The translations under genes and the position numbers were made by a program. The notes under the pieces were generated by a model. The model saw only the letters and a program-made list of their open reading frames with translations, searched no databases and was not told the origin of the DNA. A DNA stretch of 56,175 nucleotides, counting the filler, from Jimgerdemannia flammicorona (Eukaryota), in NCBI GenBank assembly GCA_003990765.1. It is 3 parts of 3 records of this genome, joined end to end, with 100 filler letters (N's around TTAATTAATTAA, not from the genome) between each part and the next. Parts side by side here need not be neighbours in the genome. Positions count along the whole stretch, not along the records: positions 1 to 18,659 come from RBNJ01002146.1; 2 more parts are not named here. One strand, 5' to 3'. Below, piece by piece: positions 1 through 42,745 of the stretch (position 1 is its first letter; every line of letters starts with the position of its first letter).

Positions 1-312
1 GTCATCCTCTCCCCTCCTCTCTGCCTCAGACCTCCCCTCCCTCCGCCGCTGGGGCCCCGGCTAGCCATCGAGGCCCCTGGCATCCCCAAACCATCTCCCC
101 TCCTCCCCACCTGCTGCCAGCCAAAGGCGCCGCCACCCCCCTGGCCAGTATGCTCACCAGATCGATCGTTGCTGTCCATGTTGTTAGTCGTTGGACACCA
201 AAAACGTTGTAGAAAGTATTGTCTGAGTCTTGTGTAACCTGAATGTTACCGGAGAAAGGTGACCATTGGACTTGACAAAGTTATAAGTATAGCTAAGAAC
301 TGAGCCAATTCA

Positions 313-2017: not shown

Positions 2018-2059
2018 TAGTACTCTGTAAACCTGACCTGATTAACCTGAAACCCGACC

Positions 2060-2365
2060 CGTAAAACAGCCAACCCGGAATTAGACGTCACCTGTCTTTA
2101 ACCCAACCTGGAATTATATATCACCCATCTTTAACCCGACCCAGAATTATATATCACACATCTTTAACCCAACCCAGAATTGTATGTCACCTGTCTTTAA
2201 CCCAACCTGGAAAGATACATTACCCATCTTTAACCTGACCTGAAAATGTATGTCACCCAACCCATTATTTACCCTTAACCCAAACCTGAACCCAACCCCT
2301 GAACTCGACCCTGAACCCAACCCCTGAACCTGACCCTGAACCTGACCCTCTGAACTCTACTCTGA
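2060..2365 (+). repeat. Left subterminal tandem array (~33-bp unit AACCCRACCYGGAATTATATRTCACCYRTCTTT, then CCTGAA-type short repeats)
   Basis: About six visible 33-bp units; reverse-complement copies at 7690-7940. Confidence 0.85.
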
Positions 2366-2396
2366 AAAAATGATTCGGAAAATATTTGGATAATAT

Positions 2397-4752
2397 TCAG
2401 AGTAATTGAAAGTGAAAAATATCTGAAGACCACCAAGAATCCAAACACATGCATGCACAAATTGTATTTACATACAAGCTGTTTCGATGTTCAGTCACTA
2501 GCTCACCAGCAATAGAAAAAATATGTTTAGATGGAACAGATGTCACTGAAATAGCAAGATAATCATGAGCCATTCATGAAAGATTAGGATATACCAACTG
2601 ATTTCGCTGCCACCAATCCAGTATATCTATACGAGAATTAGCTGGATTCTCTGACAAATAACTGAAACAGAGAAATATGAGTGAAAATTAACCAAGCCAA
2701 TCAAAAAACATAAAAACAACACCCACCATTCAAGCTCATCATCTACATCGATGTGCTGTTTCTTCTTATATATTGAGTTGATAAAATCATCAGCATCACG
2801 AGATATTGAGGGTATAATGATAGCATTAACAGGCTTATACTCCTTTTCCCAGATATGTTCCATCTGATTCTTCCATTCATTAATTAAGGATTTTTTCCAT
2901 TGTTCATGATGGAAATAACACATGTTGATATGTGGATCTAAGGCCGAAGCTATGCTGTATAATGGTGTCATCTTGCAGTAATACTTTAGAAGTTTCATAC
3001 ATGCATTCTCAGCAGCGGTAAGCATTATCTATAAAAAATAAAAATATACACATATTACTTCCCAATTACTTACTAAATTAGTTCCTAAATTCACAAATAA
3101 AATTACTTTCAAAATCATATATATACCTGATTAAAATGTTCACCAGTTTGATATATATTGATGACATCTTCGAGGTGATCACATAGCCGATTAAATAGTA
3201 GGATAACAGCCACTATTGTAGGATACTTCAAAGCTGACATCACAGTTGTCACTTTGGCAAAAGGCTCGAGAAATTGGCAAATCAATTCAAATTGTTGCCA
3301 TGCATCTTCAGATATATTGCTCATTTGCTTATCTATAGCACACAATATATCCAAGCTCTATTTGGATGTAATATCAATTTATTTAGTACCAAAATACTTC
3401 CGAATTATATTCCAAAATCTATATAAATAGATTCAAAATCTTACCTTATGAATCTCCAGAGCACACGCTAACATTTCATGTATAGAACTCCATCTCATCG
3501 TAACATCTAAGAGAGGCTTCAAAATGGGAATTCCGGAGGATTTACAGACCTTCACCAGTTGTGCTTGTCATTGTGCTGAATTTTTGATCTTCTTTATCAA
3601 CTCCCATAGCTTTCCAATGGGCTCACTAAGAGAACCAAGATTATCATGAATGACGAGATTCAACATATGCCTGAAACAGCATACATGAGTAAGTAGATAA
3701 TGGAGATTCTCAAACAGAGTATCATTGTTACTGGCATTGTCATACATAATAGCAATGATTTGATTGTCACTAGGCAATAAATCATCTATTACCAGCTCCA
3801 GACTTTTCGCAAGATTGGTACCCATGTGTGTTATTTTGCTGATATTCACAAAGTCTAAGATAATGTCATGCATCTTCCAATCACTATCAATCCAATGGGC
3901 TGTTATTCCAAGGAAAGCCTTGATGTTAATGTCCGATATCCAACAATCAAGTATAAGTGACATCTTTGACTTGAGCCCTGCTAGCCTTGCTTTCACTTGA
4001 GTCTGCAATAGTTCGAATTCCTTTCGAATAACTTATGAAATCGTATCAGCCAATGGAAGGGCCAGATCAGAGCATAATATGTGAAGGAGATACTTGAAGC
4101 CAGCATTTTTGATAGTGGAGAATGGCTGATATCCACTGACAATAAAGTTGGCAATTAACCAACAGAAATTTTCATCACTTAAAGTCTTGCTAGTATATTC
4201 CTATTTGTAATAATAAAATTTGATCAATTATTTTTCTAATAACCTCCTAAGTACTTCCTGAATTCCATTCTATTCATATTTACAATATCATCTTTCTTAG
4301 ACCAGCGAGGATTCTCAGCACGCTGGAGAGGTAAGAGCATGGCATTGTGATGCTTCCAGAGATGTTGTTTAAGATTGTTGATATTGCCGTTCTTCAATAT
4401 ATAGCTTCAAGTCATGCAATGGTTGCAACTGATGAGCTTACTTTGTAAATTCTATTTGAATAGAGAGATATGAGACTATATTAGAACCTCAACCACTTAC
4501 AACCAACCACCCACCCTTACAACTGAGACCAATCACCCCTATGAATTCAACCATTAGCACAATGTATAAAACTACCTTTGTGGCATGATTCCACACCCAG
4601 CTATCACTAGGTTTTGTTTTTATTTTTATTCTCATGCTCATTGGTGATAACAAACTGGTGGAGATATCTGATATATCCTCCAATATATTCTCCGATATAT
4701 CATTTGACAGTTCTGAGATTTCTCCTAAATATACTTCTTGATCTTTAGACAT
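2397..4752 (-). pseudogene. hAT transposase (multi-exon, disrupted)
   Basis: N-terminal BED-like SWVWNH..CNHC..LKQHLWKHH; catalytic-region SLILDCW..AFLGITAHWID and YDNASNND..HVCCFRHMLNL; FLEPFAKVT..S..KYPTI; LDP; C-terminal dimerisation YPNLS*MAHDYLAISVTSVPSKHIFS. Confidence 0.9.
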
Positions 4753-5077
4753 TTTGAATATTTAATGATGGCAGAGACTAGGAGCTTGAGTGGGAGGCCA
4801 AGAGCTGGAAAGTGGCTAGGAAGTGGTGAGCTAGGGAGTGGCAAACTGGGAAACAAGCTGTGGGGGCAGTGAACTAGGGGGCAGGGAGTTGTGGAGAGGC
4901 AGCGAGTGGCGGAAAAAGCCAGGAACTGTGGGGGGCAGTGAGAGAGAGAGCAGCAAGGTGGTGTGCAATAGCCAGTGATTGATTGTGGACAGAGGATGGA
5001 TGAATAAATACACATGGGTAGTGAACTGGTACCCATTACACAACTACAAACAGCAAACAGCAAACATACTTTAGAGA

Positions 5078-5699
5078 TTCAGCGTGTTCTGTATTGAGCA
5101 AGGTTTGCAATGACATTTGAGTGAGATTTGTAGTACATTTGAGTGAGATTTGCAGTGAGGTTCGAGCAAGATTTGTAAGTGAGATTTGCAAGTAAGATTT
5201 GTACGTAAGATTAAAGTGAGATTTGCATAAGCCAGGCTTTGCAAGCCTTGCGCTTGTAAGCCTGAATAAGCTCAGTCACAAGCTGATATGACATATATAT
5301 AAGCTGATATCATATGATATCAGCTATCAGCTGAGCTTGCAAGTGCAAGGCTTGCAAATCTTGCTCGAACCTCACTGCAAATCTTGCTCAAACACACCAC
5401 AAACCTCGCTCAAACATCATTGCAAATCTTGCTCAATTGGGGCTTACGCAGAACCTGCTGAATTACATAGAGAGGAGTGGAACGCAGTGAGGAAAGCTCC
5501 AGATTGCAAGCATAAGCATAAGCATAAGCATAAGCATAAGCATAAGTATAAGCTTTGCTCCGCTCAGTCTGACAAGCTGATAATAAGCTGATATCACATG
5601 ATATCAGCTATCAGCTGAGTGGAGCAAAGCTTGCACTTGCACTTACACTTACGCTTATGCTTGCAATCCGGAGCTTTCCTCACTGCATTCCACTCCTCT
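5078..5699. repeat. Two adjacent long inverted repeats (hairpins ~5078-5462 and ~5471-5699) sharing a core motif
   Basis: GATTTGCAGTGAGGTTCGAGCAAGATTTG pairs with CAAATCTTGCTCGAACCTCACTGCAAATC; GAGGAAAGCTCCAGATTGCAAGCATAAGC pairs with GCTTATGCTTGCAATCCGGAGCTTTCCTC. Both loops contain AGCTGATATCAYATGATATCAGCTATCAGCTGAG. Confidence 0.85.
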
Positions 5700-6082
5700 T
5701 GTATTCCACTCCTCTTGCATTCCACTCCTCTTGTACAACCCTCATGTATTCCTCCACCTCCCTCACTCTCATTCCTTAGATTGCAAACAACATATAATTT
5801 AGAAATGGGTTTCGAAAGAGATTTTGAAGAGATTCCGAAAGAGATTTCGAAGAGATTTGGAAAGAGCTTCTGAAAGAGATTTCGGAGAGACTTCTGAAAG
5901 ATGTTATAGCTTTTGAACATTTAAGATATTGAAAGCTTACTTTTGCCTCTTGTTCTTTTCACCTCATCCTTCGCTTTGTCTTGTCCTTTGCTTCGCCTCG
6001 TCCTTTACTTCGCCTTGTCCTTTGCTTCGCCTCATCCTTTACTTCACCTCATCCTTTGCTTTGCCTCACTTAATTCACCACT

Positions 6083-7482
6083 ATGTTGAGAAAACGTGGA
6101 TATGACCACCCGGCCAATAAGTATTTACTTGGCCCCCCCCAAGCTCGATGCGCTTCAGCTCGCCATCTCAAAGCTCAGTGCCCTAAAGATGCCCAGCTTG
6201 CCGACACCCAGCCTGCCGAGCTTGCCGACACCCAGCCTGCTGAGCTTGCCGACACCCAGTCTGCCGAGCTTGCCAACACCCAGGTTGCCGAGCTTGCCGA
6301 CTCCCAGCTCACTGACCCTCAGCTCCCCAATCTCCAGCTTGACTGTCAGCTCGCTGCCAGTCTGCAAGCACAAGGTCCCCCACCAGATCCCAATAATGCA
6401 GCTCGAAAAAGTTAGTTTTTTTTTTTTTTTTCTTTTTAAATCAATGTCTGAATTTTTTTCCTAATAACATTCGAAATATACATATCCTCCAGCTTCTAAG
6501 CCTGGGCTGGAGTGCAAATCTTGCTACAATTGCCATTTTTGCCATCAAGTTTGCCCAAATACCACCTAGAAGCATTGCCAAATCAATTTCCCAGATGCCC
6601 CAAACCTCATGGAGAAAAGGCCTTACAAATTGGACATTAGGCGTGCTTTTGCTGTAGCCAACAAATGTATTAAGAAAGTACATGATGACCAACTGAGGCA
6701 AGAAGTCATAAGAGCGATAGAAAACCATGCAAAAATTGTGAAATGTTCATCATACCATACCGGCTTCAAGGTGAATGCCAAAGCATAAAACAAGCGAGGT
6801 TGTCCAGATGGAATTGTTGTCATAGATGAACACGAAAAACTGCTGGCCATATTTGAACAAGTACTGGTGAAGAACGACAAAATGCTTTATACGCGACTGA
6901 TAGATGGCAGGCTTGTGCATTTTGTTGAGGGGGGTGGTGGTGGAGGAGATGGAGAGGTGGGAGAGGTCGGTGCTGGTGGAGGAGTCGGCACCAGTGGAGA
7001 GGTTGGTAGAGAGGTTGACATGGGGGTGGTCAGCGTGGGGGAGGTCAGCATGGGGGAGGTCGGTGCGGGGGAGGTTGGTGCAGGGGAGGTCAGCACAGAG
7101 GAGGTTGGTGTAGAGGAGATCAGTGCAGAGGAATATGGAGGTCGGCGCAGGGGAGGTCAGCATGGAGGAACATGGGGAGGTCGGCACGGGGGAGGTTGGC
7201 ATGGAGGAACATGGGGAGGTCAGTGTGGAGGAACATGGGGAGGTTGGCATGGAGGAATATGGGGAGGTCGGCATGGAGGAATACAGAGAGATCAGTGCAG
7301 AGGACAAAATGGAGGTTGGCACAGAGGAGGTCAGCCCAGAGGAGAATATGGAGGAGGAGGATATAGAGGAAAGTGGTTCAGAATGTATGGAGGAAGATGG
7401 TTCGGAATATGAGAAGGAGGAGGATCAGTTGGTTTATAGTGATGAAGAGGAGGATCAGTTGGTTTATAGCGATGAAGAGTAA
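6083..7482 (+). pseudogene. Second (accessory) gene of the hAT element: Cys-rich domain plus Glu/Gly-rich repeat tail
   Basis: Exon 1 6083-6410, GT..AG intron 6411-6492, exon 2 splices in frame (AARK-T-SKPGLECKSCYNCHFCHQVC...). Two internal stops and a 2-nt deletion near 7140 relative to the MEEHGEVG repeat. Ends DQLVYSDEE* at 7482. Confidence 0.6.
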
Positions 7483-7689
7483 GATTTGTTTATACTGGTA
7501 AGTTCTTTATTTTTCTGATTTACTTCCTATTTATTTTCAATTTCATTTTGATTTTTGATTCCTAATTATGTTTCTGTTTGTTTATTCTAAATATATATCT
7601 TAGATGTGCAATATATTTTTTTTGGTGCCTTGTAGCTTAAAGGTGAATTAAAGACAGGTCTGTGTTGGGTTAAATACAGGTCAGGGTTG

Positions 7690-7940
7690 GGTCACGTATA
7701 TTTCTTGGATTGGGTTAAAGACGGGTGACGTACATTTCTAGGTCGGATTAAAGATGAGTGACATATAATTCCGAGTCGGGTTAAAGACAGGTGACGTATT
7801 ATTCCAGATTGGGTTAAAGATGGGTGATGTATTATTCCAGATTGGGTTAATGACAGGTGACATATAATTCCAGGTCGGGTTAAAGACAGGTGATGTATAA
7901 TTCCAGGTTGGGTTAAATATGTACATGGGTTGGCTTGGGT
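7690..7940 (-). repeat. Right subterminal 33-bp tandem array (inverted relative to 2060-2270)
   Basis: Repeated GGGTTAAAGAYRGGTGAYRTATWATTCCRG units. Confidence 0.85.
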
Positions 7941-7952
7941 TGTGATGCACTA

Positions 7953-8140
7953 CCTAGAAGGAGTTGAGTTTGATATAATCACCAATCACAGGTCTCTTTA
8001 GTACATCAATACTCAACCAACTCTTTCTTGCCAACAAGCCAAGTGGAGTCAACTACTTCAGACCTTTACCCCAAACATCATCTATAAGCCTGGCAAAACT
8101 CTAGTTGTACCAGATATACTTTCAAGGAGACCTGACCTTA
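7953..8140 (+). mobile_element. Continuation of Gypsy RNase H
   Basis: LEGVEFDIITNHRSL*YINTQPTLSCQQAKWSQLLQTF..IIYKPGKTLVVPDILSRRPD. Confidence 0.85.
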
Positions 8141-10826
8141 GTAGGCTTATAAACTTTGGAAAGAGCATAGAAAACTGAGAGATAAATATCTAATAAGAAC
8201 AAAGAGTTCTGAAAGAAGTGAAAAATAGATGTTATAAACAGAGAATCTAAAAATAAAGAGATATGAGCCAAACTAACCTAGAGAAGAGAGAACCTGATCT
8301 ATATAGCTCATAAGCTATAGCATAGAGGAGGGCAGAAAGACCATCAAGGTAGAGTAAATGAGGAAAAAGGATAAAATCTTAATTCTTATCAGTAACTATA
8401 AGTAAGTATAAAGATAATTACTTGACTAATTTAAGTATAGTATATGTGATATAGTCTGAAATTAAACAAGAGTAAGTATATCCAAAAGTAGATAGTGAGT
8501 AAGCTATATTGAGAAATATGTGGTTTGAAGAGATATTGATAAAGAAGACTCAATTGCTAGAAATGAAATAGTGAGAGACAATCTTCAAAGAAGATAGCAA
8601 GATTAAGAATATAATAAAAATATATCAAGTGAGCTAAATCAATAAGAAAAATTGAGAATAAGTTACTAGAAAGATGAAGTGAGGACTTAAAGAAAGAGTG
8701 AAGGAGAAAAGAGGAGAAAAGAGACAGTTAGCCTAAGAGAAAGGAGTAGATAAAAGAGCTCCAGAAAAGAATAAACTCAAAAATTTAAGACAAATAACTG
8801 GAAAAGATAAAAGAGGAATAATATAAAAAATCATTCAGAATATACTAAAAGTAATAACAGGATCCAAGAAGAGATAGGAATATCAAAAGAGAACTAAGCT
8901 GGAGAGAAGTTTAAGAGTAAGAAAACTTCTCTTTTTCTTAGACTTTTTTTTGAAGGAGACAAGATATCTAAGCAGAAGCAGACTCTGTTAGAATGTCAGA
9001 CCTTATGGCAACAGGCCTTAGTATAGATCTTATACTTGGGGACATAAGGAGAACAAGACTTAGAAGAGGCAGAAGATACTGAAAAGAGAGAATAAGAGTA
9101 GAAGGGAGTCTTAGAGAAAATAGAGGGGATGATAGGATGAGGAAGATCACCATATGGATAGTACAACTTAGTAGAGTACTAGTAAGTATAGTGGAGGTAG
9201 TTGATGTAAATAGAATAAGACCATATACCAGAGAATGGATACTTAGAGTATAGCTATATTTAGAGATAGTAGAGGTCTTAATAGAGAGAGAAAAGGAGTA
9301 GGAGGAGGACAAAGAAGCTTTAGAGGGGGTGGGAGACTTAGTACTCTTGATAGCTGTAGTAGTAATGAGATATAAACTTTCTTGTAAGTAGCAGTACAAG
9401 CCTTAGACTAAATAGTCTTAGAGATTAAGACCTCAGGAATAGCTGGAGAAGAGATAGTAGAGGTAGTACAGATAGCAGTAATAGTATACAAGACCTCAGC
9501 TTCATGAAGACAAGAGAGAAAGGAGTAGCTATTAAGAAGGAAATAGTGAACAGCATTGATATCAGTAGTAGCAGAGGAGATCTCATCAGTAAAGAGGTCA
9601 TAGAAGAGGATAGTATTGAAGAGATGGAAGACAGTAAGAGCCACAAAGGCAGTCCAGACTTGACAGAATTGGGTGGAGATAGCAGAGACTATATCATGTA
9701 TAGTATTAATAGTAGTAAGCTTAGAGTAGTAGAGATAATTCAGACCTTCTCAGAAAAGGCCTGATGATGTATCTTAAAGAAGACAGAGTAGCAAATAGTA
9801 GGTAAGGCTATAGTATCAATCTTACAGTAAAGGTAAGCCTCCTTGGAGGAAAGAGTGAGAGCTAAGCAAAACTGTATGAGTAGAGGATGGCCAGATGATC
9901 AAAGATTGAGAAGAAGGAAATAAATAACTGACAATATATAGATATCAAAAGAGATATTGTTAGAAGAGAAATAGGAGAGAAGGAGAGGAGAAATGATATC
10001 CTTATCTATAACTACACAAGTGGCAGAAGTTCTAATAATAGATAGTATAACAGAAAAAGAAGAGGGCATATTGGAAGCTATGAGAAGAGATAGATCAGAA
10101 AGTCCAGAGGTAAAGTCTGAGTCAAAGGTAAAGCAGAGGTTAGGGAGATAAGATATAAGAAAGATAGGAGAGAAAGAACAGAACAAAGAACTAAGCAGAA
10201 ATTATATTAGTTCTTATATATTAAATATAAAGTCTCAAAAACCACAACATAAAGTCAACTATATTAGGAACCAAATGTTATACAAGATTATATAAGAAGT
10301 CAATTTTAGAGGAAGAATAAAAAACAAAACAAAACAAATCCAAATCAAGATTAAAAAACATCTGCAGACCCCAGAGAGATGAGCAAGAGTGAGGAGTAGA
10401 GGTTAAGCAAAATAAGCCACAGTAAGTCTGAGGTAAAGCCAAGAGGCTGAAGATAGTAGAAAAGAGCAAAGTAAAGACCAAATACTCTAGAGTAAATGTG
10501 AGACTCCAGAGAGAGCTAGGATATTTTTTAATCTTAATTTGAATTTGTTTATTTTGTTTTTTATTCTTTCTCTGAGATTAACTTCTTATATAATCTTATA
10601 TAACATTTGGTTCCTAATATAGTTAACTCTATATTATAGTATATTATTCCTTTTTAGGACTTTATATTTTGTATATAAGGACTATATTTTCATAATAATA
10701 TACAGCTGATACAATTTTTACTTAGTTTTTTATTCTGTCCTTTTCTCTCCTATCTTTCTTATATCTCAGCTCCTCAATCTCTACTTTAACTTTAGCTCAG
10801 ACTTTATCTCTGGACCTTCTTTCTAC
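8141..10826 (-). mobile_element. Old, heavily mutated copy of the Penelope-like element (partial RT, ORF1, IR-loop-IR, ~300-bp inverted arm)
   Basis: Colinear with 13143-15220, e.g. AGTAGGCTTATAAACTTTGGAAAGAGCATAGAAAAC vs AGTAGGCTTGTGAACTTTAGGAAGAGCATAGAAAAC. IRs at 10349-10363 and 10519-10533; 10534-10826 is the reverse complement of ~10090-10348. Confidence 0.85.
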
Positions 10827-11060
10827 TAGTATTCCAAATAAGTTGATTTGAATTAAATTTAGATTCAATTTATCATATAATAATTTGATCTGAATCACTT
10901 TATCTAAATTACTCCATCTGAATCACTCTATCTGAATTACTCAATCCAAACTACTCAATCTGAATTACTCAATCTGAATTACTTAATCCAAATTACTTAA
11001 TCCAAATTACTCAATCTGAATCCTTCAATCCAAATTCTCTAATTCAAATTCTCTACATGA
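10827..11060. mobile_element. Terminus of a TAGTA-ended DNA element with a 14-bp TACTCAATCTGAAT tandem array
   Basis: Starts TAGTATTCCAAATAAGTTGA, similar to the MITE termini at 23049 and 24325; tandem 14-mers ~10885-11050. No partner end found. Confidence 0.5.
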
Positions 11061-11424
11061 CTCATATATTAGATATATCTACATATATAATATATATAAT
11101 AAATATATATATATACAAATATATATATATATAAATATATATATATCAATATGTAAATACATTATAATGGTGACCTCAGAATGATGACATCAGTACAAGA
11201 GACAGCCTTTCCTTGTAAGCCATCAGATTAGAATATAAGAAGATTATATACATAGTATGACTCAGACTATGAGATAAGTAATGATGACCAACTGTGAGTC
11301 ATTGTGACCACCATTCAGACATCTTGAGAAATATAAAAGAAGGATCAAGAAACCACAATAGCAGCAACTCAATAAGACCCACCAATCCCAAAATAGCTCA
11401 AAGACTTACCATAAATAAAATACC

Positions 11425-11930
11425 TGCAGAGGAGGAAGAAGGCCCAGCAGGAGCCAAGGGAGCGAACCCAGAGCCAGTGTCAAAGTGAACGGAAGACATG
11501 TGGAAGAGCGTGTATAAGGGGGACGAATAAAGAACATAACCGAAAATGCATCAGCCGTTTATTGCTACATAAAAACGCGGTCCTTATATACAAAATACAA
11601 CGTCCCAAAAGGGAGGATGCGCCACAACTCGGAGCAAACTGAATTAGGAACCACATGACCACCGGAGATAGGCGGAGATAAAGGGGGAGCCAATCCCAGT
11701 TGCAGGATAAAAATCACAAACAAACACAAACAAAACAAATCCAAATTGAGATTAAAAAACATCCGCAGACCCCAGAGGGGTGAGCGTGAGCGAGGGGTGA
11801 GGCCAAAACAGAGCAAACTGCAGCAAGCCTGAGTGAAGCGAGGGGCCGAAGGCAGCGGAGGGGAGTGGAGTAAGGCCGAGACCCTGGAGCGAGCACAAGA
11901 CCCCGGAGGGGGTAAGGATGTTTTTTAATC
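11425..11930 (-). repeat. Pseudo-LTR / partial tandem copy of the Penelope-like element (IR-loop-IR, 5' UTR, start of ORF1)
   Basis: 11425-11764 repeats ~14882-15220; loop 11765-11915 is the reverse complement of 15221-15371; follows the RT end directly on the minus strand. Confidence 0.88.
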
Positions 11931-14009
11931 CGCTCCAGCAGAACTGGAGGCACCAGAAGGTGATGAAAACGCAAAACGAGAGTGATGGATTGAAGAAGAA
12001 ATAGAGAGAAGACGCGAGTAAGCAATCAGAGGGCGTCAGGAAAGAGATGAAAGTCCATGGTATGAAAGAGAAGAGCACAGGACGGTATCAGGGTGTTGAG
12101 CGACCCAACGAGCATGATCAAATGGTACGACAAGAATCGGGGGTGGGAAAGAAGAGGGGGTATGGAGAGGGTAAGGGGGGAGAGAGAGAAGGGAGGGGGG
12201 GTAAAGGGGAGAGAGTAGGGAAGAGCGAACAACAGACCATTCGACAGAAGCAAGTAGATCGCGAATGATAGAAATAGGGTAGGCACGACGATGGACCACG
12301 AAGTTGCCAAGAACCCAAACCGCAGACACCCAATCAGAACGACGGGAGCAGCATAATGCAAGATGACGAGCCTCACCCCAAACGCATTCAAGAAGAGTGC
12401 GACGAGGATGATTGGACAAGAAGTCAGGGAACTGTTGGGAATAGGGAAAACGAGAATAAACAACAGTTCGGAAAGGAGAAAGAGAAAGGGAAAGGTCCAA
12501 AAAGGGAATACTAATCATACCGCACACCCAGGTAATAAAATGGTGGGGAGGGTAGACACCCAGGAACATACTAGGGATATCAATACCAGCAATAGCAAAG
12601 ACAATGAAGTCATCAATGTATCGGTGAAAGAAGATATCCCCAGCCCAGAACACAATGGAAAGAGGTGAAGTAATATCATGTAATGTATGCAATTCATGGG
12701 CCAGGCCAACAAGGTTGGTAAGAGTGGGGGCACAATTCATACCCATGGCAATACCAGAAGTCTGGTGGAAGGAGTCAAGGGCCAACTCAAAATAATTCGA
12801 GCCGCAGACGAGGAGCATAAGCTCAACAATGGAAGCCAGTGAAACCGGGGAATCCAAGGGAAAAACCAAGGAACCCAAGAAGCGAAGGCAGTCATCGATC
12901 TCATCAAAACGAATAGCAGTATAGAAGGAAGAGAAGTCACCAGAGGCCAAATGGAAAAAACGGTAAACAGGCACAATGGTGGAGCAGAGAAGGGCGAGCT
13001 CCTGAGTATCATGAAGAATAGTATACTCAGGCCCAAGACAGTGTTGTAAGAGAGCCATCCAGGAGAGAAAGAAGTGGGATAACCACTTCGAAATCTTGGT
13101 GGTAGGAGAACTGTACGCAGCCGTAATAGGACGCCAAGCCAAAGTAGGCTTGTGAACTTTAGGAAGAGCATAGAAAACTGGAAGAGAAATATCCAGGGAG
13201 GACAAAGAGTCCTGGAAGAAGTTAAAAATGGGGTTCATGAATGGGGAGTCCGAAAGCAACCTAGCATGAGCCAGAGAAACCCGAAGAAGAGTGAGAACCT
13301 CATCCAATCCTAGAGCACTAGGCTCGTAAGCCATGGCTCGAAGGAGGGCAGAAAGGCCATCAAGGTAGAGCAACTTAGGAATAAGTGCAAAACCCTGATT
13401 CTTATTAGTGACTGTGAGCAAGTGCATAGGCAATTGCTTGACCGATTTAAGCACAGTATGCACAGCACAGTCCGAAACCAAGCAAGAGCGAGCTCATCCA
13501 GGAACGGACAGTGAGCAGGCCATGTCGAGGAATATGCAGTGTGAAGAGACATTGGGAGGGGGGACCCAATCGCTAGGAACAAAATAGCGAGAGGGCATCT
13601 CACCACGATCTTGAAAGAAAATGGCAAGGTCAAGAGCACGACGAAAACGTGTTAGATGAGCTGGATCAGTAAAGGAGAATTGTGAGAGAGTCACAGGAAA
13701 AACAAAGCGAGGACCCAAGGATAAGGCAAAGACTTGAAGGGGAGAAAGGGGGCAGTCAGCCAAAGAAAAAGGAGGAGACAAAAGTGTTCCAAGAGAAGAA
13801 TAAACCCGAAAATTCGGGACAAGCAACTGGGAAAGGCGAAGGGGGGACAATATGAGGAACCACTCAGGGTGCACCAGAAGCGATGATGGAATCCGAGAAG
13901 GGACAGGGACACCGAGGGAGAACCACACCGGGGGGAAGTTTAAGAGTGGGAGGCCTTCTCCTTCCCTCTGACTTTTTTTGAAGGTGGCGAGCCCGACGAA
14001 TGGGAGCAC
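11925..14009 (-). pseudogene. Penelope-like element reverse transcriptase, no endonuclease (left arm)
   Basis: PLE RT motifs TNKNQGF, FYALPKVHKP..WRPI, GDFSSFYTAI, QTSGIAMG, RYIDD, IPFLDL, SNHP. Reading through TGA stops gives ..RPLIAYSRLLSISSSIHHSR..AGAD*, with the TAA inside the 15-bp IR. No GIY-YIG motif follows. Confidence 0.88.
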
Positions 14010-14967
14010 ACCCCATCAGAGTGCCAGACCTTGCGGCCACAGGCTTTCATGCAGCCCTTATATTCAGGAGCATGGGTGGAGGAGGCGGAGGAGGAACCAG
14101 TGGAGGAGGCCGAAGGTGAGAGGCCGATGAAGCCTGGTTGGGCTTGGCGGGGGTCTTGGCAGGGGTCTTGGAGAGGGCCTTGGTGGCGGCAGTGGCAAAG
14201 GAACGAACCTCAGCACAAGCGGAAGCACGAGCTTCAGCATGGATGGCCTCGGAGACCGAAACCTCGGGGGAGGTAGGCAGAGGAGTAGTGGCGGCGGTGT
14301 GAGCAGCGGCGGCAGCACGAGATGACTCCTGCTCATGAAGGCGAGCGACAAAAGAGGTGCCGGCAAGGAGGAAGTGATGTACAGCATCGATGTCGGCAGC
14401 AACAGAAGGAATGTCTTGGATGGCGAAGCCACAGAAGGGGGCAGCATCTGAAAGGCGAGAGGAGGCAAAGGCCACGAAAGTGGCACAGGCTTGTTGGAAG
14501 GAGGCAGAAGCGGTGGCGGCGGAAGCAGTGGCGGCATCAGCGGCGGCGAGCTTGGCGGCGGCAGTGGCGGCACGGACCTCTTCGGAGAGGGCTTGGCAGC
14601 GGGCCTCGGGGAGGACAGAGTAGTGGACGGCGGGCGGAGCGATGACGTCGATGTCATGGCGGAGACGAGCCTCCTTGGCGGAGAGGGCAAGAACTGACTG
14701 GAACTGAGAGAGGAGTGGACAACCAGAAGGATGAAGGTCCAAAGGGAGGGAGAGAATGGCAGAAGAGATGTAGGTCTCGAAGGAGACAGTGGTGGGGGTG
14801 AAGGCAGGGGGAGGGGGAGGAGGAAGTACCTCATCCATGAGCTCGTCGATGAGGACAGAGGCCCTGAGGGCAGGCAGTACAGCAGAGGAGGAAGAAGGCC
14901 CAGTGGGAGCCAAGGGAGCGAACCCAGAGCCAGTGTCAAAGCGAATGGAAGATATGTGGAAGAGCAT
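13940..14967 (-). pseudogene. ORF1 of the Penelope-like element, left arm (202-bp deletion, frameshifted)
   Basis: Near-identical to 15637-16854 but lacks the segment equivalent to 16474-16675. Confidence 0.8.
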
Positions 14968-15205
14968 GTATAAGGGGGACGAACAAAGAACATAACCGAA
15001 AATGCATCAGCCATTTATTGCCACGTAAAAACGTGGTTCTTATATACAAAATACAACATCCCAAAAGGGAGGATGCGCCACAACTCGGGGTGAACCGAAT
15101 TAGGAACCACATGACTGCCAGAGATAGGTGGAGATAAAGGGGGAGCCAATCCCAGTTGCAGGATAAAAATCACAAACAAATACAAACAAAACAAATCCAA
15201 ATCGA

Positions 15206-15386
15206 GATTAAAAAACATCCTTGCCCCCTCTGGGGTCTCATGCTCGCTCCAGGGTCTCGGCCTTACTCTGCTCCCCTCTGCTGCCTTTGGCCCCTCGCTT
15301 CGCTCGGACTCACTGTGGCTCGCTCTGTTTTGGCCTCACCCCTCGCTCGTGCTCACCCCTCCAGGGTCTGTGGATGTTTTTTAATC
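15206..15386. repeat. Palindrome centre: 15-bp IR GATTAAAAAACATCC / GGATGTTTTTTAATC enclosing a 151-bp loop
   Basis: IRs at 15206-15220 and 15372-15386; flanks are reverse complements out to 12135 and 18659 (gap). Confidence 0.92.
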
Positions 15387-15636
15387 TCGATTTGGATTTG
15401 TTTTGTTTGTGTTTATTTGTGATTTTTATCCTGCAACTGGGATTGGCTCCCCCTTTATCTCTGCCTATCTCCGGCGGTCATGTGGTTCCTAATTCGGTTC
15501 GCCCCGAGTTGTGGCACGTCCTCCCTTTTGGGATGTCATATTTTGTATATAAGGACCGTGTTTTTACGTGACAATAAACGGCTGATGCATTTTCGGTTAC
15601 GTTCTTTGTTCATCCCCCTTATACACACTCTTCCAC

Positions 15637-16854
15637 ATGTCTTCCGTTCACTTTGACACTGGCTCTGGGTTCACTCCCTTGGCTCCTGCTGGGCCTTCTT
15701 CCTCCTCTGCTGTACCGCCTGCCCTCGGGGCCTCCATCCTCATCGACGAGCTCATAGATGAGGTACTTCCTCCTCCCCCTCCCCCTGCCTTCACCCCCGC
15801 CACTGTCTCCTTCGAGACCTATGTCTCTTCTGCCATTCTCTCCCTCCCTTTGGACCTTTGTCCTTCTGGTCGTCCACTCCTCTCTCAGTTCCGGTCGGTT
15901 CTTGCCCTCTCCGCCAAGGAGGCTCGTCTCCGCCATGACATCGACATTGTCGCTCCACCTGCCATCTGCTACTCTGTCCTCCCCGAGGCCCGCCACCAAG
16001 CCCTCTCCGAAGAGGTCCGTGCCGCCACTGCCGCCGCCAAGCTTGCCGCCGCTGATGCCGCTGCTGCTTCCGCTGCCACCACTGCCGCCTCCTTCCAACA
16101 AGCCTGTGCCACTTTCATAGCCTTTGCCTCCTCTCACCTTTCGGATGCTGCCCCCTTCTGTGGCTTCGCCATCCAAGACGTTCCTTCTGTCGCCGCTGAC
16201 ATCGACACTGTACGTCGCTTCCTCCTCGCCGGCACCTCTTTTGTCGCTCACCTTCACGAGCAGGAGTCATCTCGTGCTGCCGCCGCTGCTCACGCCACCG
16301 CCACTGCTCCTCTGCCTACCTCCCCCAAGATTTCGGTCTCCGAGGCCATCCGCGCTAAAGCTTGTGCTGCCGCTCATGCTGAGGTTCATTCCTTTGCCAC
16401 TGCCGCCACCAAGGCCCCCTCCAAGACCCCCACCAAGACCCCGGCCAAGCCCAACCAGGCTTCGTCAGCCTCTTCCTGGTCTCCCTCCCCCACCAAGGCT
16501 TCCTCCTCTGTTCCCCCTGCCCCCAAGTGTGGCCGCCAACTTGGTTCTCGCCCCATCGGGGCCTGGCCTTGCGCTGTCTGCTCTGGCTGCCTCTACCATG
16601 CCTACTGGCACCCGGCCAAGTCTGTCTGTCCCCATGGTGGTGTTCCTCGCGCTGCTGCCCCTTCGGCTGCTCGCTCGCCTTCAGCCTCCTCTGCCGGTTC
16701 CTCCTCCACCTCCTCCACCCGTGCTCCTGAATGTAAGGGCTGCACGAAAGCCTGTGGCCACAAGGTCTGGCACTCTGATGGGGTGTGCTCCCATTCGTCG
16801 GGCTCGCCACCTTCAAAAAAAGTCAGAGAGAAGGGAAAGGCCTCCCGCTCTTAA
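15637..16854 (+). CDS. ORF1 of the Penelope-like element (405 aa; Ala-rich helical region, two CxxC..WH..VCxH Zn fingers)
   Basis: Intact ORF; CAVCSGCLYHAYWHPAKSVCPH and CKGCTKACGHKVWHSDGVCSH; overlaps the RT frame. Confidence 0.75.
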   Translation: MSSVHFDTGSGFTPLAPAGPSSSSAVPPALGASILIDELIDEVLPPPPPPAFTPATVSFETYVSSAILSLPLDLCPSGRPLLSQFRSVLALSAKEARLRHDIDIVAPPAICYSVLPEARHQALSEEVRAATAAAKLAAADAAAASAATTAASFQQACATFIAFASSHLSDAAPFCGFAIQDVPSVAADIDTVRRFLLAGTSFVAHLHEQESSRAAAAAHATATAPLPTSPKISVSEAIRAKACAAAHAEVHSFATAATKAPSKTPTKTPAKPNQASSASSWSPSPTKASSSVPPAPKCGRQLGSRPIGAWPCAVCSGCLYHAYWHPAKSVCPHGGVPRAAAPSAARSPSASSAGSSSTSSTRAPECKGCTKACGHKVWHSDGVCSHSSGSPPSKKVREKGKASRS

Positions 16855-18659
16855 ACTTCCCCCCAGCGTGGTTCTCTCTCGGTGTCCCCATCCCTTCTCG
16901 GATTCCGTCGTCACTTCTGGTGCACCCTGAGTGGTTCCTCATGTTGTCCCCCCTTCACCTTTCCCAGTTGCTTGTCCCGAATTTTTGGGTTTATTCTTCT
17001 CTTGGAACACTTTTGTCTCCTCCTTTTTCTTTGGCTGACTGCCCCCTTTCTCCCCTTCAAGTCTTTGCCTTATCCTTGGGTCCTCACTTTGTTTTTCCTG
17101 CGACTCTCTCACAATTCTCCTTCACTGATCCGGCTCGTCTAACACATTTTCGTCATGCTCTTAACCTTGCCATTTTCTTTCAAGATCGTGGTGAGATGCC
17201 CTCTCGCTATTTTGTTCCTAGCGATTGGGTCCCCCCTCCCAATGTCTCTTCACACTGCGTATTCCTCGACATGGCCTGCTCACTGTCCGTTCCTGGACAA
17301 GCTTGCTCTTGCTTGGTTTCGGACCATGCCGTGCGTACCGCGCTTAAATCAGTCAAGCAATTGCCTATGCACTTGCTCATAGTCACTGATAAGAATCAGG
17401 GTTTTGCACTTATTCCTAAGTCACTCTACCTTGATGGCCTTTCTACCCTCCTTTGAGCCACAGCTTATGAGCCTAGTGCTCTAGGATTGGATGAGGTTCT
17501 CACTCTTCTTCGGGTTTCTCTGGCTCATGCTAGGTTGCTTTCAGACTCTCTATTCGCGAACCCCATTTTTAACTTCTTCCAGGACTCTTTGTCCTCCCCA
17601 GATATTTCTCTTCCGGTTTTCTATGCTCTTCCTAAAGTTCACAAGCCTACTTTGGCTTGGCGTCCTATTACGGCTACGTACAGTTCTCCTACCACTGAGA
17701 TTTCGAAGAGGTTATCCCGCTTCTTTCTCTCCTGGATGGCTCTCTTACAATACCGTCTTGGGCCTGAGTATACTATTCTTTGTGATACTCAGGAGCTCGC
17801 CCTTCTCTGCTCCACCATTGTGCCTGTTCACTGTTTTTCCCATTTGACCTCTGGTGACTTCTCTTCCTTCTACACTGCTATTCGTTTTGATGAGATCGAT
17901 GACTGCCTTCGCTTCTTGGGTTCCTTGGTTTTTCTCTCGGATTCCCCGGTTTCGCTGGCTTCCATTGTTGAGCTTACGCTCCTCGTCTGTGGCTCAAATT
18001 ATTTTGAGTCGGCCCTTGGCTCCTTTCACCAGACTTCTGGTATTGCCATGGGTATGAATTGTACCCCCACCCTTGCCAACCTTGTTGGCCTGGCCCATGA
18101 ATTGCATGCGTTACATGATATTACTTCACCTCTTTCCATTGCGTTCTGGGCTGGGGATATCTTCTTTCGCTGATATATTGATGACTTCATTGTCTTCGCT
18201 GTTGCTGGTATTGATATCTCTAGTGTGTTCCTGGGCATCTACCCTCCCCACCATTCTATTACCTAGGTGTGCGGTACGACTAGTATTCCCTTTTTGGACC
18301 TTTCCATTTCTCTTTCTCCTTTCCAAACTGTTGTTTATTCTCATTTTCCCCATTCCCAACAGTTCCCTGACTTCTTGTCCAATCATCCTCGTCGCACTCT
18401 TCTTGAATGCGTTTGGGGTGAGGCTCGTCATCTTGCATTATGCTGCTCCCGTCGTTCTGATTGGGTGTCAGCGGTTTGGGTTCTTGGCAACTTCGTGGTC
18501 CATCATCGTGCCTACCCTATTTCTATCATTCGCGATCTACTTGCTTCTGTTGAATGGTCTATTGTTCACTCTTCCCTACTCTCTCCCCTTTACCCCCCCT
18601 CCCTTCCCTCTCTCCCCCCTTACCCTCTCCGTACCCCCTCTTCTTTCCCACCCCCGATT
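16785..18659 (+). pseudogene. Penelope-like RT, right arm (in-frame stops; runs into the gap)
   Basis: VTDKNQGF, FYALPKVHKP, GIAMGMNCTPTLANL, *YIDD, IPFLDL, SNHP; same frame across ORFs 16785, 17487 and 18267. Confidence 0.88.
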
Positions 18660-18758
18660 NNNNNNNNNNNNNNNNNNNNNNNNNNNNNNNNNNNNNNNNN
18701 NNNTTAATTAATTAANNNNNNNNNNNNNNNNNNNNNNNNNNNNNNNNNNNNNNNNNNN
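18660..18758. other. Assembly gap with artificial linker
   Basis: N-run, TTAATTAATTAA, N-run. Confidence 0.97.
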
Positions 18759-19334
18759 NGGAGATGGTGGAGGGAGTGGGTGGGGTTTGGGTTGGGGCTT
18801 GGGGAGGTGGTGGAGGGCATGGGGTGGGGTTCGGGGTGGGGCGTGGGCGGTGGAGGTCAGCGGGAGTGAAAAGCGCCGGGGTGGGATAGGGTCGGCGGGC
18901 GCTATAAAATACAGCTGGATACCTTATTATTTCTATTTTATCATTGTAATAAATTATTCAATGGACGTGGTTCAGGTGGACATGGTTCGGGTTGACGTGA
19001 TTATATGGTTTTTGATATTACAGCGAGCGAGATTGTTATCGCAAGGAGGAGAACGGCGATCAAAACAGCCAACGAAGGCGTGGAGCCATAAGAACTATAC
19101 AGCCGAAAATGGACGCAAATCTAGAGTTCAAAACAAAGTTCGCAACTGGGAGCCCACCAACGGCATGTAACCTACGCCTGCGCATTGATCAAACGCAAGC
19201 CTACCGCAAATCCAGCGGATACTGTCAAGCTAAGGACGTCCGAGAAATCCTAAAAGTCCGAAACAACCTCCGAGTCAACCACGATTTAAGCGGGAGTAAC
19301 CCGTAATAACGACATCCGTAACAAACGACATATA

Positions 19335-21123: not shown

Positions 21124-22423
21124 CTAATCTATATCGTGAAATATCGGAGAATTAATTACATCACAATTCACATTCTGGACTTGGATACTTGTTCGCTGCT
21201 CTATCAACTTCAACCGATGCTGCTGGGCCTCTTCCAACGTGAATCCCCACTTGGCCAACTCCATGATCTTGAGTAATATTTCGGTCGGCATCTCTCTCCC
21301 TATCGTCCACACCACCACCTCATTCAGTGCCGTCATTACCCGGGGAAACACATGTTCCCATTGCTGCTCAGGTACATGCTTGGTGGACACAATCTCTCGC
21401 TCCGGATTAACAAGGAAAAAACTGAGAATTTTGCAGAGGCCGACCTCGTTCTTCGACTTGTTAAGAATAGTAGATACCTCATTCTGCAGTCCGTTGCCCT
21501 TGCCAAACGCGACTAGTCGGCCCTCCTTTACCTTGACATCCCACCACGATGCAGTAAAGTGCCGCTTCCTATGCTGGAAAGCGAGGCGGCTGTCGCTAAG
21601 GTGCGGGGAGACCGAGTAGTAGTAGACACCAGAGGCGATGATGTGCTCGTTTGACAAGCCTTCCAAATACCGCTCCTCTATGTCCATATTATCACCAGGC
21701 GGGATAACGTAGTTGACCGCTTTGACAATGACTTGCAACTCGCGGGAACGGAGGGGCATCTCCAGGATTTGCTCGAACATTGGGAGGAAGAGTGAAAAGC
21801 CGAGTTCGATGGCCTTGTATAAATCTCGGTGAGCCATGTCGAGGTTGTTGATGTAGGACTTGACACTTGTGGAACCATCATTTCCCACATAAAATTGGGC
21901 AGGGAGCCACTGGTACGGCGATATCACCCACTCCCCCCGAATACGGATAAATTGCGCCACCGAATGATGAGGCCGGATAGACGGGTCAAGAACGGTGCTG
22001 ACGCCCTCAACGTACGGGAACAAGGAAGGATGGATAAGAGCTTGAACCTTGTTGTCCGTCTTGGGGTGGTAATCCTTGAACGGCCTGGTCGCGATGACGT
22101 CTAACCCGCTGTTGAGAAGCTTGTGGAGGTTCGCGGGCATAACATTATCTGCTACCCGGACTCCAGGTAGAGGCCGGGCCATGATTTTGCCGACAACATT
22201 CTGCGCTGATGCGACCTCAGCACGCAGGTCTACCGTTTTGAAGGCGTCCTTACGAAGAGCGATCAGTGCGGCGACTGGAAATTTCAGAGCATTTGATAAG
22301 GTTTGGAAGCGAGCCTACAGCAGAAGGGTATGTGTGAGTTAGGAGATGTTGGCTTAAATTAACGAACGTTAAATATGCGAATATATAAAAACGGTGCAAT
22401 ACCTTTCGTTTGTTATATGACAT
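21124..22423 (-). CDS. DUF4246-like protein (2OG-Fe(II) dioxygenase-like family), 2 exons
   Basis: Exon 1 22403-22423 (MSYNKRK), GT..AG intron, exon 2 22314-21124 in frame. Motifs LIHPSLFP, YQWLP, SYINNL, LQVIVK, EGLSNEHIIASGVYYY, KILSFFLVNP..IVST..VPEQQ, TLEEAQQHRLKLIEQR. Confidence 0.8.
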
Positions 22424-23048: not shown

Positions 23049-23521
23049 TAGTACTTAGAATAAATTGAATTGAATTGAATTTATCTCTAATTCAATATAT
23101 TTGAACCAAATTAAGAGTCAATTCAATTCAATTCAATTCAATTCAAATCAAAACAAGGTTCAATTTGATTCAAAGTCTAATTTAAATCTAATTTTTCAAA
23201 ATTCAATATCTTGATCAAAAAATATCCAAATTTAATAAATTTTAGCTTATTTGATACACTTTATGATAGAGAATATAGTACAATAAAGAATATTAAATTT
23301 GGACATATTTCCATTAAGTTAATATATTTTGAATTTAGGATAAAGATTTTCAATCAAATTGGACTCTAATTTAATTTAATTAAATTGAATCAGATCTTAA
23401 TTTAATTTAAATTCAACTTAATTTATATTCATTTTGAATTCTAAAATTTCCAATTCAATTCAATTTGAATAACTCTCAATTTGATTTAATTTAAATTGAT
23501 TCAATTTATTTAAGAATACTA
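23049..23521. mobile_element. hAT-type MITE
   Basis: TIRs TAGTACTTAGAATAAATTGAAT / ATTCAATTTATTTAAGAATACTA; degenerate 8-bp TSD TTGCTAAC/GTACTAGC (LTR consensus GTGCCGGC). Confidence 0.7.
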
Positions 23522-24324
23522 GTACTAGCTCAATAGAGATAAATTATAGAGTTGAGATAGCTATATAGATTGGCCTGAGCCCTAGTTATTTTGTCAAAAA
23601 GTAATGAGATATTCAGTTGGGTTTCAAAATGTAAGTTCTTTTAAAATGTAGAAAATTTAAGTAATTTTCTTATTAAGTACAGATTTGATATAATATGATA
23701 GTTTGGCAGACTTTTCCAAATAATAACTAAGTTTTTTAAACTTTATCTAGTAAGTAGACCAAAATGTTGAATAATTCAAGTTCTTCAGACTTAGTCTAAT
23801 ATGTATACTAAAATTAGTAGACTTCTTTATATTGAAAAGTAGACAGAGTAAAAAAGAAAATAAAGCTTATAACTTCTTAGTAAAGACTTATTAATAGATA
23901 TATCTCCTAAGTATATATTTTCAATTCTTCCTGAATTAAGTAGCTTTTGGCAGACAGTTCTTCTAAGTATATAAGATAATTGTCTTTTACTTTTTTGACT
24001 TTTTAGACTAATATTTATTTACTCAAATCTCTTAAATATTTTATATAAGTATAGTTGCTATCTGATTACTATTTAGATATATAATTATAGAATATACAGT
24101 AAGACTAGTTTAGAGAAGATATGATTACTTATTATCTTATAAGAGAGGTATTTCATTAGAACAAATATTCAACTTAAAATAAAAATTTTATTTAAAATGA
24201 TATTTTAGTTGAGATAAAATCAATATACTCAATTTAATATATCTAATTATTTATATAAATTTATAATATATATAATAACTATATAGAGTGACTATACTAA
24301 GTATCTTTTATATATTATTTAGTT

Positions 24325-24657
24325 TAGTACTCTTAAATGAATCAAGTTAATTAAATCAAATCAAATTGAGGGTCAATCAAATCAAATCAAATTTGAATTA
24401 AATTGAGGATCTGATTTGAACTCTAGAAATATAATAATATAATAAAAATATATCTAAATTTAATGATCTTTAGCTTGTTAAATTCCTCTTATATAGAAGA
24501 ATCTAATAAGCCAATAATTGTTAAATTTAGATGTATTTTTATTGAGTTATTATATTTTGAAAAATAGAGCTTAAATTAAATTTTGAATTAAATTAGCCTT
24601 TGATTTGATTTAAATTAAATTAAATTAAATCTTTGACTCAATTTATTAAGAATACTA
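24325..24657. mobile_element. hAT-type MITE
   Basis: TIRs TAGTACTCTTAAAT../..ATTAAGAATACTA; 8-bp TSD ATTTAGTT/ATCTAGTT. Confidence 0.75.
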
Positions 24658-24794
24658 ATCTAGTTATACTATAATATTTACTTATTAAATCAGCCCCCAC
24701 TAAATTATAGTCTATTCTAGAATATCCTTTAGTTAACAATCTTATATTTATAGATATCTTTTATATTTATATCTATATTATTATCTCCTTCTAT

Positions 24795-37417: not shown

Positions 37418-37517
37418 NNNNNNNNNNNNNNNNNNNNNNNNNNNNNNNNNNNNNNNNNNNNTTAATTAATTAANNNNNNNNNNNNNNNNNNNNNNNNNNN
37501 NNNNNNNNNNNNNNNNN
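37418..37517. other. Assembly gap with artificial linker
   Basis: N-run, TTAATTAATTAA, N-run. Confidence 0.97.
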
Positions 37518-42612: not shown

Positions 42613-42745
42613 GGCTGGTTTGAAATGAGCGTAAGGGGAATTGGCTGGCTTTGCATCACACCATTTATCCTTGCAAGTCACATAATTACTGTGTATAATT
42701 TCCCTTTCCTCCCCTTTCAACACTTTTCTTTGTTGCTCTCCGAAA

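Follow-up and report, generated by a model that had tools for sequence, protein, structure and literature searches.

An endonuclease-less Penelope-like retrotransposon family with direct and inverted pseudo-LTRs in Jimgerdemannia flammicorona

Introduction

The Penelope-like element (PLE) Pen2a_Av of Adineta vaga, which encodes an endonuclease (EN+), is described as having direct-direct-inverted pseudo-long terminal repeats (pLTRs) with a 15-bp overlap and a head-to-head palindromic junction, and the same source notes that the Penelope pLTR organization does not extend to fungal EN-deficient PLEs (PMC3846280). According to the account in PMC8557442, PLEs without an endonuclease (EN-less) are generally terminal, EN-less PLE-X elements occur genome-wide in Chara by a mechanism stated to be unknown, the origin of PLE tandem and inverted structures is undefined, and the non-telomeric insertion of nuclease-less PLEs is an open question. 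Coprina-1_Alen is reported as a telomeric Coprina with two open reading frames (ORFs) (PMC13159263). Here, we describe an EN-less Penelope-like retrotransposon family of the fungus Jimgerdemannia flammicorona (assembly GCA_003990765.1) that is high-copy and interstitial and has the Penelope layout. Two of its copies form a palindrome in the stretch of 56,175 nt analysed here (the window), and other copies are cited by locus labels (L). Based on the organization of these copies, we suggest, with a probability of roughly 0.6, that this PLE uses breaks it does not make: its reverse transcriptase (RT) would prime from both ends of a break, and the two complementary DNAs (cDNAs) would be joined at a 15-bp stem.

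The family resembles Pen2a_Av and the EN+ Penelope/Poseidon elements in having an ORF region between direct pLTRs, an adjacent inverted pLTR and a palindromic junction. It differs from Penelope/Poseidon by the lack of GIY-YIG, two ORFs with a likely frameshift, hundreds of copies and a fungal host, and it leaves short deletions or duplications of 183–1006 bp instead of an 8–10 bp target site duplication (TSD) and a 30–40 bp tail. Of the characters of the EN+ group (Penelope/Poseidon, Neptune, Nematis), the pLTR layout is present at all 31 visible 5′ junctions and the C-terminal GIY-YIG is absent. Like Coprina and Athena, the family has an RT with a DKN motif, thumb and linker and no endonuclease, with two ORFs between direct repeats. 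Unlike them, it is non-telomeric, with no telomeric repeat at its ends, no hammerhead found and an inverted pLTR in every full copy seen. It shares EN-less, genome-wide or non-telomeric insertion with PLE-X of Chara braunii and Selaginella, but the CxC motif, canonical hammerhead and Chlamys affinity, all three attributed to PLE-X, were not found in it (PMC8557442). A literature search short on subscription papers and made without Repbase or supplements turned up no account of a fungal EN-less PLE that is dispersed and has the inverted-pLTR layout; the files of Craig et al. may hold one.

Structure of the Element and Its Copies

Numbered from window position 15206 (u1), the unit consists of a pLTR (u1 to ~503), ORF1 (ATG at u549), an overlap at a run of seven A residues (A7), ORF2 and a second pLTR. 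The pLTR opens with the 15-bp stem A, a loop and A′, and the ORF2 stop falls in A. In the window, self-BLAST recovered the fold-back palindrome of the initial annotation, with arms at 12135–15220 and 15372–18659 around a 151-nt loop (15221–15371); the matching segments are 12135–14120/18659–16674 (94.3% identity) and 14073–15220/16525–15372 (90.6%). The adjoining 11425–11930, at first taken for a partial tandem repeat, proved to be the 505-bp 3′ pLTR of the element, already holding the 15-bp stem and loop (11426–11930 versus 15710–15206, 91.5% identity by self-BLAST). Its outer end at 11426 is the fixed terminus of the family, found at 94–118 ends of other copies, and has a 2-nt GC microhomology with the target.

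The exact inverted junction of the window has 160 matches genome-wide and the exact 3′-pLTR junction 90; both counts come from exact patterns, so they are lower bounds and are not mutually comparable. The axis stem-loop is 181 nt long in 90 of 93 family stem-loops, and that of the window (15206–15386) is predicted to fold as a laddered rod. An ORF1 probe gave 40 matches on 37 contigs (four end too early, one was not fetched and one was not reached), and in every one of the 31 copies with a visible 5′ side the inverted arm was joined at the stem. The usual order is inverted pLTR, pLTR, body, pLTR. In 25 of these 31 copies the inverted arm is short, comprising only pLTR segment u167–503; its loop lies in the sense of the long arm in 17 and is flipped in 6, and two copies are joined at an inner rung. 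The other six carry two long arms, as in the window, so the double arm of >3 kb claimed initially is real at this locus but is a minority form in the family. One solo palindrome without a body was found (L062). The giant palindrome is one outcome of the family's normal integration. An older subfamily (772 first-look candidates), represented in the window by the copy at 8140–10820, has a hairpin of 183–189 nt with the same stem, and inverted arms surround it in most of 20 loci (5′ junction only).

Several further observations concern individual copies. At L283 (G000:C7023:5200-10254), more than 15 short pLTR-end pieces are chained with three stem junctions in a partly mirrored array, and its sense pieces stop at loop position 78–79. 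Transversion haplotypes are mosaic in blocks across the bodies of 62 family copies, a pattern that points to switches of template from one RNA to another or to ectopic gene conversion. The same 4-nt insertion follows TATA-like runs (pLTR columns 188–191 and 268–271) in single pLTR copies of the unrelated loci L045, L104, L059, L108 and L110.

The pLTR copies and arms of a locus appear to derive from one event. Locus-private transversions are common to the pLTR copies within L031, L036, L043, L045, L046, L050 and L058. The partner arms of a double-arm locus differ at 0–2 informative transversion columns (up to 60 informative) in 10 of 10 cases, compared with a median of 12–33% between unrelated copies. 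Global alignment of the left and right window arms gave 198 transitions, 7 transversions and one 202-bp deletion (left arm), yet the arms have in common three transversions absent from all other copies (of 62). These common private transversions, together with the transitions, indicate a single old event rather than an assembly chimera. Where the context was readable, 40 of 59 C/T and 63 of 90 G/A differences lay in CpG, which we read as probable methyl-CpG decay following insertion.

Coding Capacity and Reverse Transcriptase

ORF1 is present in both window arms, as is an RT ORF with the motifs PKVHK...RPI, GIAMG and YIDD. Both copies are dead: they contain in-frame stops, the right ORF1 start reads ATA, and the left copy has a frameshifting deletion. 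The RT was first thought to end just after the linker-like motif RPLIAYSR..SI; this holds for both window arms, whereas in the family the reading frame of the RT continues as far as the pLTR stem, where GAT-TAA ends it (AG-GAT-TAA at 58 of 59 ends). ORF1 starts with ATG in 66 of 70 copies, and ORF2 is open for 696 amino acids in L036 and L048. The A7 run is seven residues long in all 51 copies matched, and ORF2 is probably reached by −1 frameshifting at this run. At L039:5295-8030, a frame of 912 amino acids passes from ORF1 into the RT despite a normal A7 run, so an indel elsewhere fuses the frames.

Over RT, thumb and linker, ORF2 is colinear with P0062 and P0142, two homologues that carry a GIY-YIG, and it breaks off at the point at which the nuclease of these proteins starts. 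It ends about 15 amino acids past the linker and is wholly accounted for by these three parts. A GIY-YIG hidden Markov model (HMM) built from the homologues' nucleases found 11 of 151 homologues, whereas the six-frame search of 8 family loci gave no match (best E 0.86). ORF1 and the ORF2 N-terminus gave no Pfam match, and the N-terminal GIY-YIG and CxC linker of Naiad/Chlamys are likewise absent. As for a nuclease hidden in ORF1, no Pfam family was hit and the Atlas matches were all <0.9 and serve as leads only. No Pfam family of tyrosine recombinase, integrase or RNase H (hallmarks of DIRS and LTR elements) was found in ORF1 or ORF2. For the hammerhead, there was no Rfam match at E<=5 in 7000–18659, a search that decayed or non-canonical forms could escape, and the core CTGANG[AG] was not found in the L036 pLTR.

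The PLE hallmarks are present, namely a TERT-related RT with the DKG/DKN motif, core motifs, thumb and linker, and pseudo-LTRs in direct and inverted orientation. The predicted ORF2 fold is nearest to telomerase RT, as the top four PDB matches in Foldseek are TERT (model pLDDT 70.6). The nearest ORF2 homologues are EN-less, with named matches from Racocetra and Puccinia. In a FastTree phylogeny of 148 rows, ORF2 groups with P0001, P0003 and P0005 among EN-less rows and outside the EN+ group, a placement among homologues only, with no named PLE clade references. Alignment, nuclease HMM, tree and fold thus bear out the initial identification of a PLE-type RT without GIY-YIG.

Chromosomal Location and Target Sites

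The host telomere repeat, found at contig ends, is TTAGGG. It occurred within 300 nt of none of 95 element ends, in agreement with the interstitial, non-telomeric location proposed initially. No exact join of an element end with CCCTAA exists genome-wide, nor one in the opposite orientation, and neither family DNA nor a PLE RT was present in the 8 kb examined at each of 13 TTAGGG sites (9 terminal, 4 internal). Telomere association is therefore rejected for the sample examined (95 ends, 13 TTAGGG sites and genome-wide exact joins).

Target duplications of 183–1006 bp were found in 6 of 34 insertions, which is a minimum because of the many short flanks; comparison with empty homologues confirmed three of them. 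Five insertions have target deletions of 1–23 bp, and three further apparent deletions (54, 1032 and 1283 bp) rest on one comparator each. Short TSDs were not above the shuffled control in 35 insertions, and the insertions showed no target motif and no fixed stagger. It should be noted that a perfect 62-bp palindrome of target DNA lies beside the short arm of L039 (4535–4596), and a short inverted segment (9050–9075) is found at its opposite end; together they look like a snap-back at a break.

Proposed Mechanism of Integration

In each insertion the same terminus (pLTR position ~502–505) occurs twice, facing outwards both times, and the inner join lies at the pLTR's 15-bp stem. Based on this layout, we suggest the following pathway. 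ORF1 and the −1-frameshifted RT would form a ribonucleoprotein. The telomerase-like RT would accept any DNA 3′-OH with 0–4 nt of pairing, start at a fixed site, and do this at each of the two ends left by a break or a collapsed fork, with one RNA or sibling RNAs as template. A start at the 5′ pLTR would give a short arm and a start at the 3′ pLTR a long one, and two long arms would make the window palindrome. A cDNA stopped early may serve as primer for another start at the fixed site, much as telomerase adds repeats. The two antisense cDNAs would then anneal via A/A′ or a rung of the loop ladder, host repair would fill in, and the geometry of the break would set the scar, either a short deletion or a long duplication.

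Re-starts are indicated at the outer ends: of 118 such ends near u503, 12 pass into family sequence, in all 12 cases in sense orientation and at scattered positions (u24 to u3556). These ends include the short arms of L015, L037 and L271. On sequence grounds, we read the sense tandem joins as truncated cDNAs that probably served as primers for a new start at u503. Furthermore, the arms are not mirror images at L037, L041, L271 and L282 (L282–L285 were picked for odd spacing), and the short-arm pLTR haplotype of L047 is unlike that of its own long arm. The tandem re-starts, non-mirror arms and L047 haplotype together favour priming from both ends with A/A′ joining, and the joining of two cDNAs also accounts for both loop orientations and the inner-rung joins.

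Parts of this pathway have counterparts elsewhere. Twin priming and endonuclease-independent insertion of L1 likewise involve a pair of cDNAs, each primed by a 3′ end of the target and joined on the inside, as well as deletions at the target; in the present family, unlike L1, the two primings use a single fixed site that both pLTRs contain, and a hairpin encodes the join. The TERT-nearest fold and the re-start at one template site, resembling repeat addition, recall telomerase RT, from which the family differs by its kilobase template, its mobility and the absence of a telomeric repeat. For an EN+ PLE, in vitro data are described in which initiation is internal, near the ORF start and without homology, and both strands are extended (PMC11167929).

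Some findings weigh against priming from both ends. The end offsets of the short arm and the 3′ pLTR agree in 12 of 28 loci versus 6.4 expected (p 0.007), as if one end had been copied from the other. The long-arm haplotypes are identical in 10 of 10 doubles, which the model can accommodate only if one RNA is used again or if just one donor is active; to our knowledge, PLE RTs have no RNase H, which bears on such reuse. L283 is partly mirrored, with sense pieces ending at loop position 78, and the model does not explain the 17:6 bias in loop orientation. In addition, the assembly is fragmented (35,354 contigs), and any one discordant locus may owe its structure to a mis-join or to gene conversion.

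Alternative Explanations

The initial annotation proposed a self-primed hairpin rather than target-primed reverse transcription. In such a fold-back, one cDNA would reach the RNA 5′ end, where its terminal A′ would pair with A and prime the second strand, with or without initial target priming. Full run-through would give the double arm, and short arms would arise by a stop at the pLTR end or by later pLTR–pLTR recombination collapsing one arm. Self-priming at head-to-head palindromic junctions has already been put forward for EN+ Penelopes (PMC3846280). The junction always lies at a pre-existing stem, which is a part of the initial proposal that stands, and the identical haplotypes in doubles, directly predicted by a fold-back, the end-offset concordance, and a short arm with the 5′ pLTR haplotype in L042, L055, L105 and L108 all agree with it. 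However, the mirror arms that a fold-back predicts are not seen in L037, L041, L271 and L282, and it gives no reason for short arms stopping at the start site or carrying tandem re-starts. Flipped loops need a second step. Recombination collapse would probably favour them (503 bp versus 337 bp of homology), yet they are the minority, 6 versus 17. The loops in both orientations, the intermediate registers, the fresh RT starts at outer ends and the often non-mirror arms weaken the case for a self-primed hairpin duplex instead of target priming, and we consider a fold-back unlikely.

Much less probable is a panhandle return, in which the 3′ end of one cDNA, primed at a single nick or nascent strand, would pair with the distal stem close to the 5′ end of that cDNA; synthesis would then copy the 322-bp R part of the pLTR and run off beside the priming site. 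This would account for the exact stop at ~503, both loop orientations and the end concordance, but it predicts a short arm derived from the 3′ pLTR. Where polymorphisms differ, the short arm tracks the 5′ pLTR in L042, L055, L105 and L108, and over 33 loci, including double and tandem ones, it has 82 common derived sites with the 5′ pLTR versus 57 with the 3′ pLTR (p 0.04). This tendency disfavours the panhandle.

Slightly more doubtful still is an endonuclease acting in trans, from an EN+ PLE or another element, that would nick both strands and make the family semi-autonomous. The layout equals that of EN+ Penelopes, and very long TSDs are known for Dualen LINEs, described as having two nucleases and duplications of median 900 bp (PMC9977147). 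Against this, no ORF2-like RT lies within 1.5 kb of the best 12 of 34 GIY-YIG matches, and neither a target motif nor a fixed stagger is seen. GIY-YIG ORFs occur in clusters, several per contig, on G000:C509, C6559, C1998, C24471 and C17552, and these are probably organellar homing endonucleases.

An assembly or amplification chimera, or two neighbouring independent insertions, is hardly credible despite the fragmented assembly and a right arm ending at a contig end, as a chimera would yield near-identical arms and independent insertions would lack common private changes, whereas the arms are diverged, share private transversions, and have a junction that recurs at 160 places; both possibilities, including the chimera that the initial annotation held in reserve, are rejected.

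Other Features of the Window and Distant Relatives

The window joins three contigs of near-equal length through spacers of the form N44-TTAATTAATTAA-N44 (18660–18759 and 37418–37517), which are not genomic gaps. Positions 1–18659 correspond to G000:C2146:1-18659, and the remaining window DNA is off that contig. Since the spacer at 18660 parts unrelated contigs, the right arm is truncated where its contig stops, and the supposed contig gap beside the palindrome is an artificial boundary. A pattern search for the missing right junction gave no match, although a long duplication or a mutated end would also escape it. The features of the palindrome and its surroundings are listed in Table 1.

Table 1. 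Coordinates of the palindrome, its parts and neighbouring features in the window.
Feature	Position	Strand	Remarks
Target	11163..11425	+	first ~260 bp of high-copy LTR-like repeat, broken by insertion
3′ pLTR, left copy	11426..11930	-	505 bp: 15-bp stem A, 151-nt loop, stem A′, 322-bp R
ORF2, left copy (PLE-type RT, thumb, linker; no endonuclease)	11925..13980	-	two premature stops; natural stop inside pLTR stem
A7 run, ORF1/ORF2 overlap in -1 frame	13972..13984	-	candidate ribosomal frameshift site
ORF1, left copy	13940..14838	-	Ala-rich helical part, Cys/His motifs; broken by 202-bp deletion near 14120
Inner pLTR segment (A′ + R), left copy	14882..15220	-	in most family members, sole constituent of inverted arm
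Axis	15206..15386	.	stem A 15206-15220, loop 15221-15371, stem A′ 15372-15386
5′ pLTR, right copy	15206..15710	+	
ORF1, right copy	15754..16854	+	start reads ATA; two CxxCxxCxxHxxWH...C.H-type motifs
A7 site + ORF2 (RT), right copy	16810..18659	+	three premature stops; cut by contig end
Older CpG-free relative	8140..10820	-	RT remnant 8140-9022, 185-nt hairpin 10349-10533, short inverted arm 10520-10820

The target repeat has 2965 first-look candidates, and seven homologues run unbroken past the insertion site. Its TG start and paired copies 7–12 kb apart suggest that it is LTR-like. The older relative, 600 bp from the palindrome, has the same hairpin-centred layout.

Imperfect AT-rich palindromes of about 230–400 bp occur at 23062–24687 and 5093–5699, and the type at 23–24 kb, similar to miniature inverted-repeat transposable elements, recurs in the flanks of other loci. 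A short-period tandem repeat (PPC/PPHV-like reading) is present at 2070–2263 and 7684–7922, inverted and 5.5 kb apart. Host genes on the other contigs (21124–22314, 41401–42798 and 50497–51222) encode DUF4246, a protein weakly similar to EcsC that has a homologue in Endogone, and a fragment of CBF/Mak21; one host gene there shows 71% identity to an Endogone protein, which on the strength of this single gene points to a probable Endogonales (Mucoromycota) host.

Among 77 metagenome relatives (21–28% identity), no stem-centred inverted arm was found, these mostly short contigs being too distant and too short for a test; many of the relatives carry telomeric repeats. A distant RT relative (23%) in L234 (WNFD01006130.1) lies between 436-bp inverted repeats at 2400–2835 and 10913–11360, 8 kb apart, which may be a similar layout in another organism.

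Biological Implications

The family uncouples the Penelope layout from the nuclease and offers hundreds of uniform copies with readable target scars. We propose, tentatively and as a possibility that falls short of even odds, that a fungal PLE lineage turned telomere-type end healing into general nuclease-free integration: both break ends would be healed from one RNA site, with telomerase-like re-starts and a laddered hairpin splicing the two cDNAs. The predictions of this model are a fixed start site, primer promiscuity and an A/A′ bridge. If it is true, RT and RNA would suffice to produce the inverted-pLTR layout of all Penelopes, a layout that would predate the fusion with GIY-YIG, and these elements would stand between telomerase and mobile PLEs as an intermediate. 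For the host genome, the duplications of 0.2–1 kb and palindromes of 7–8 kb are a source of structural change.

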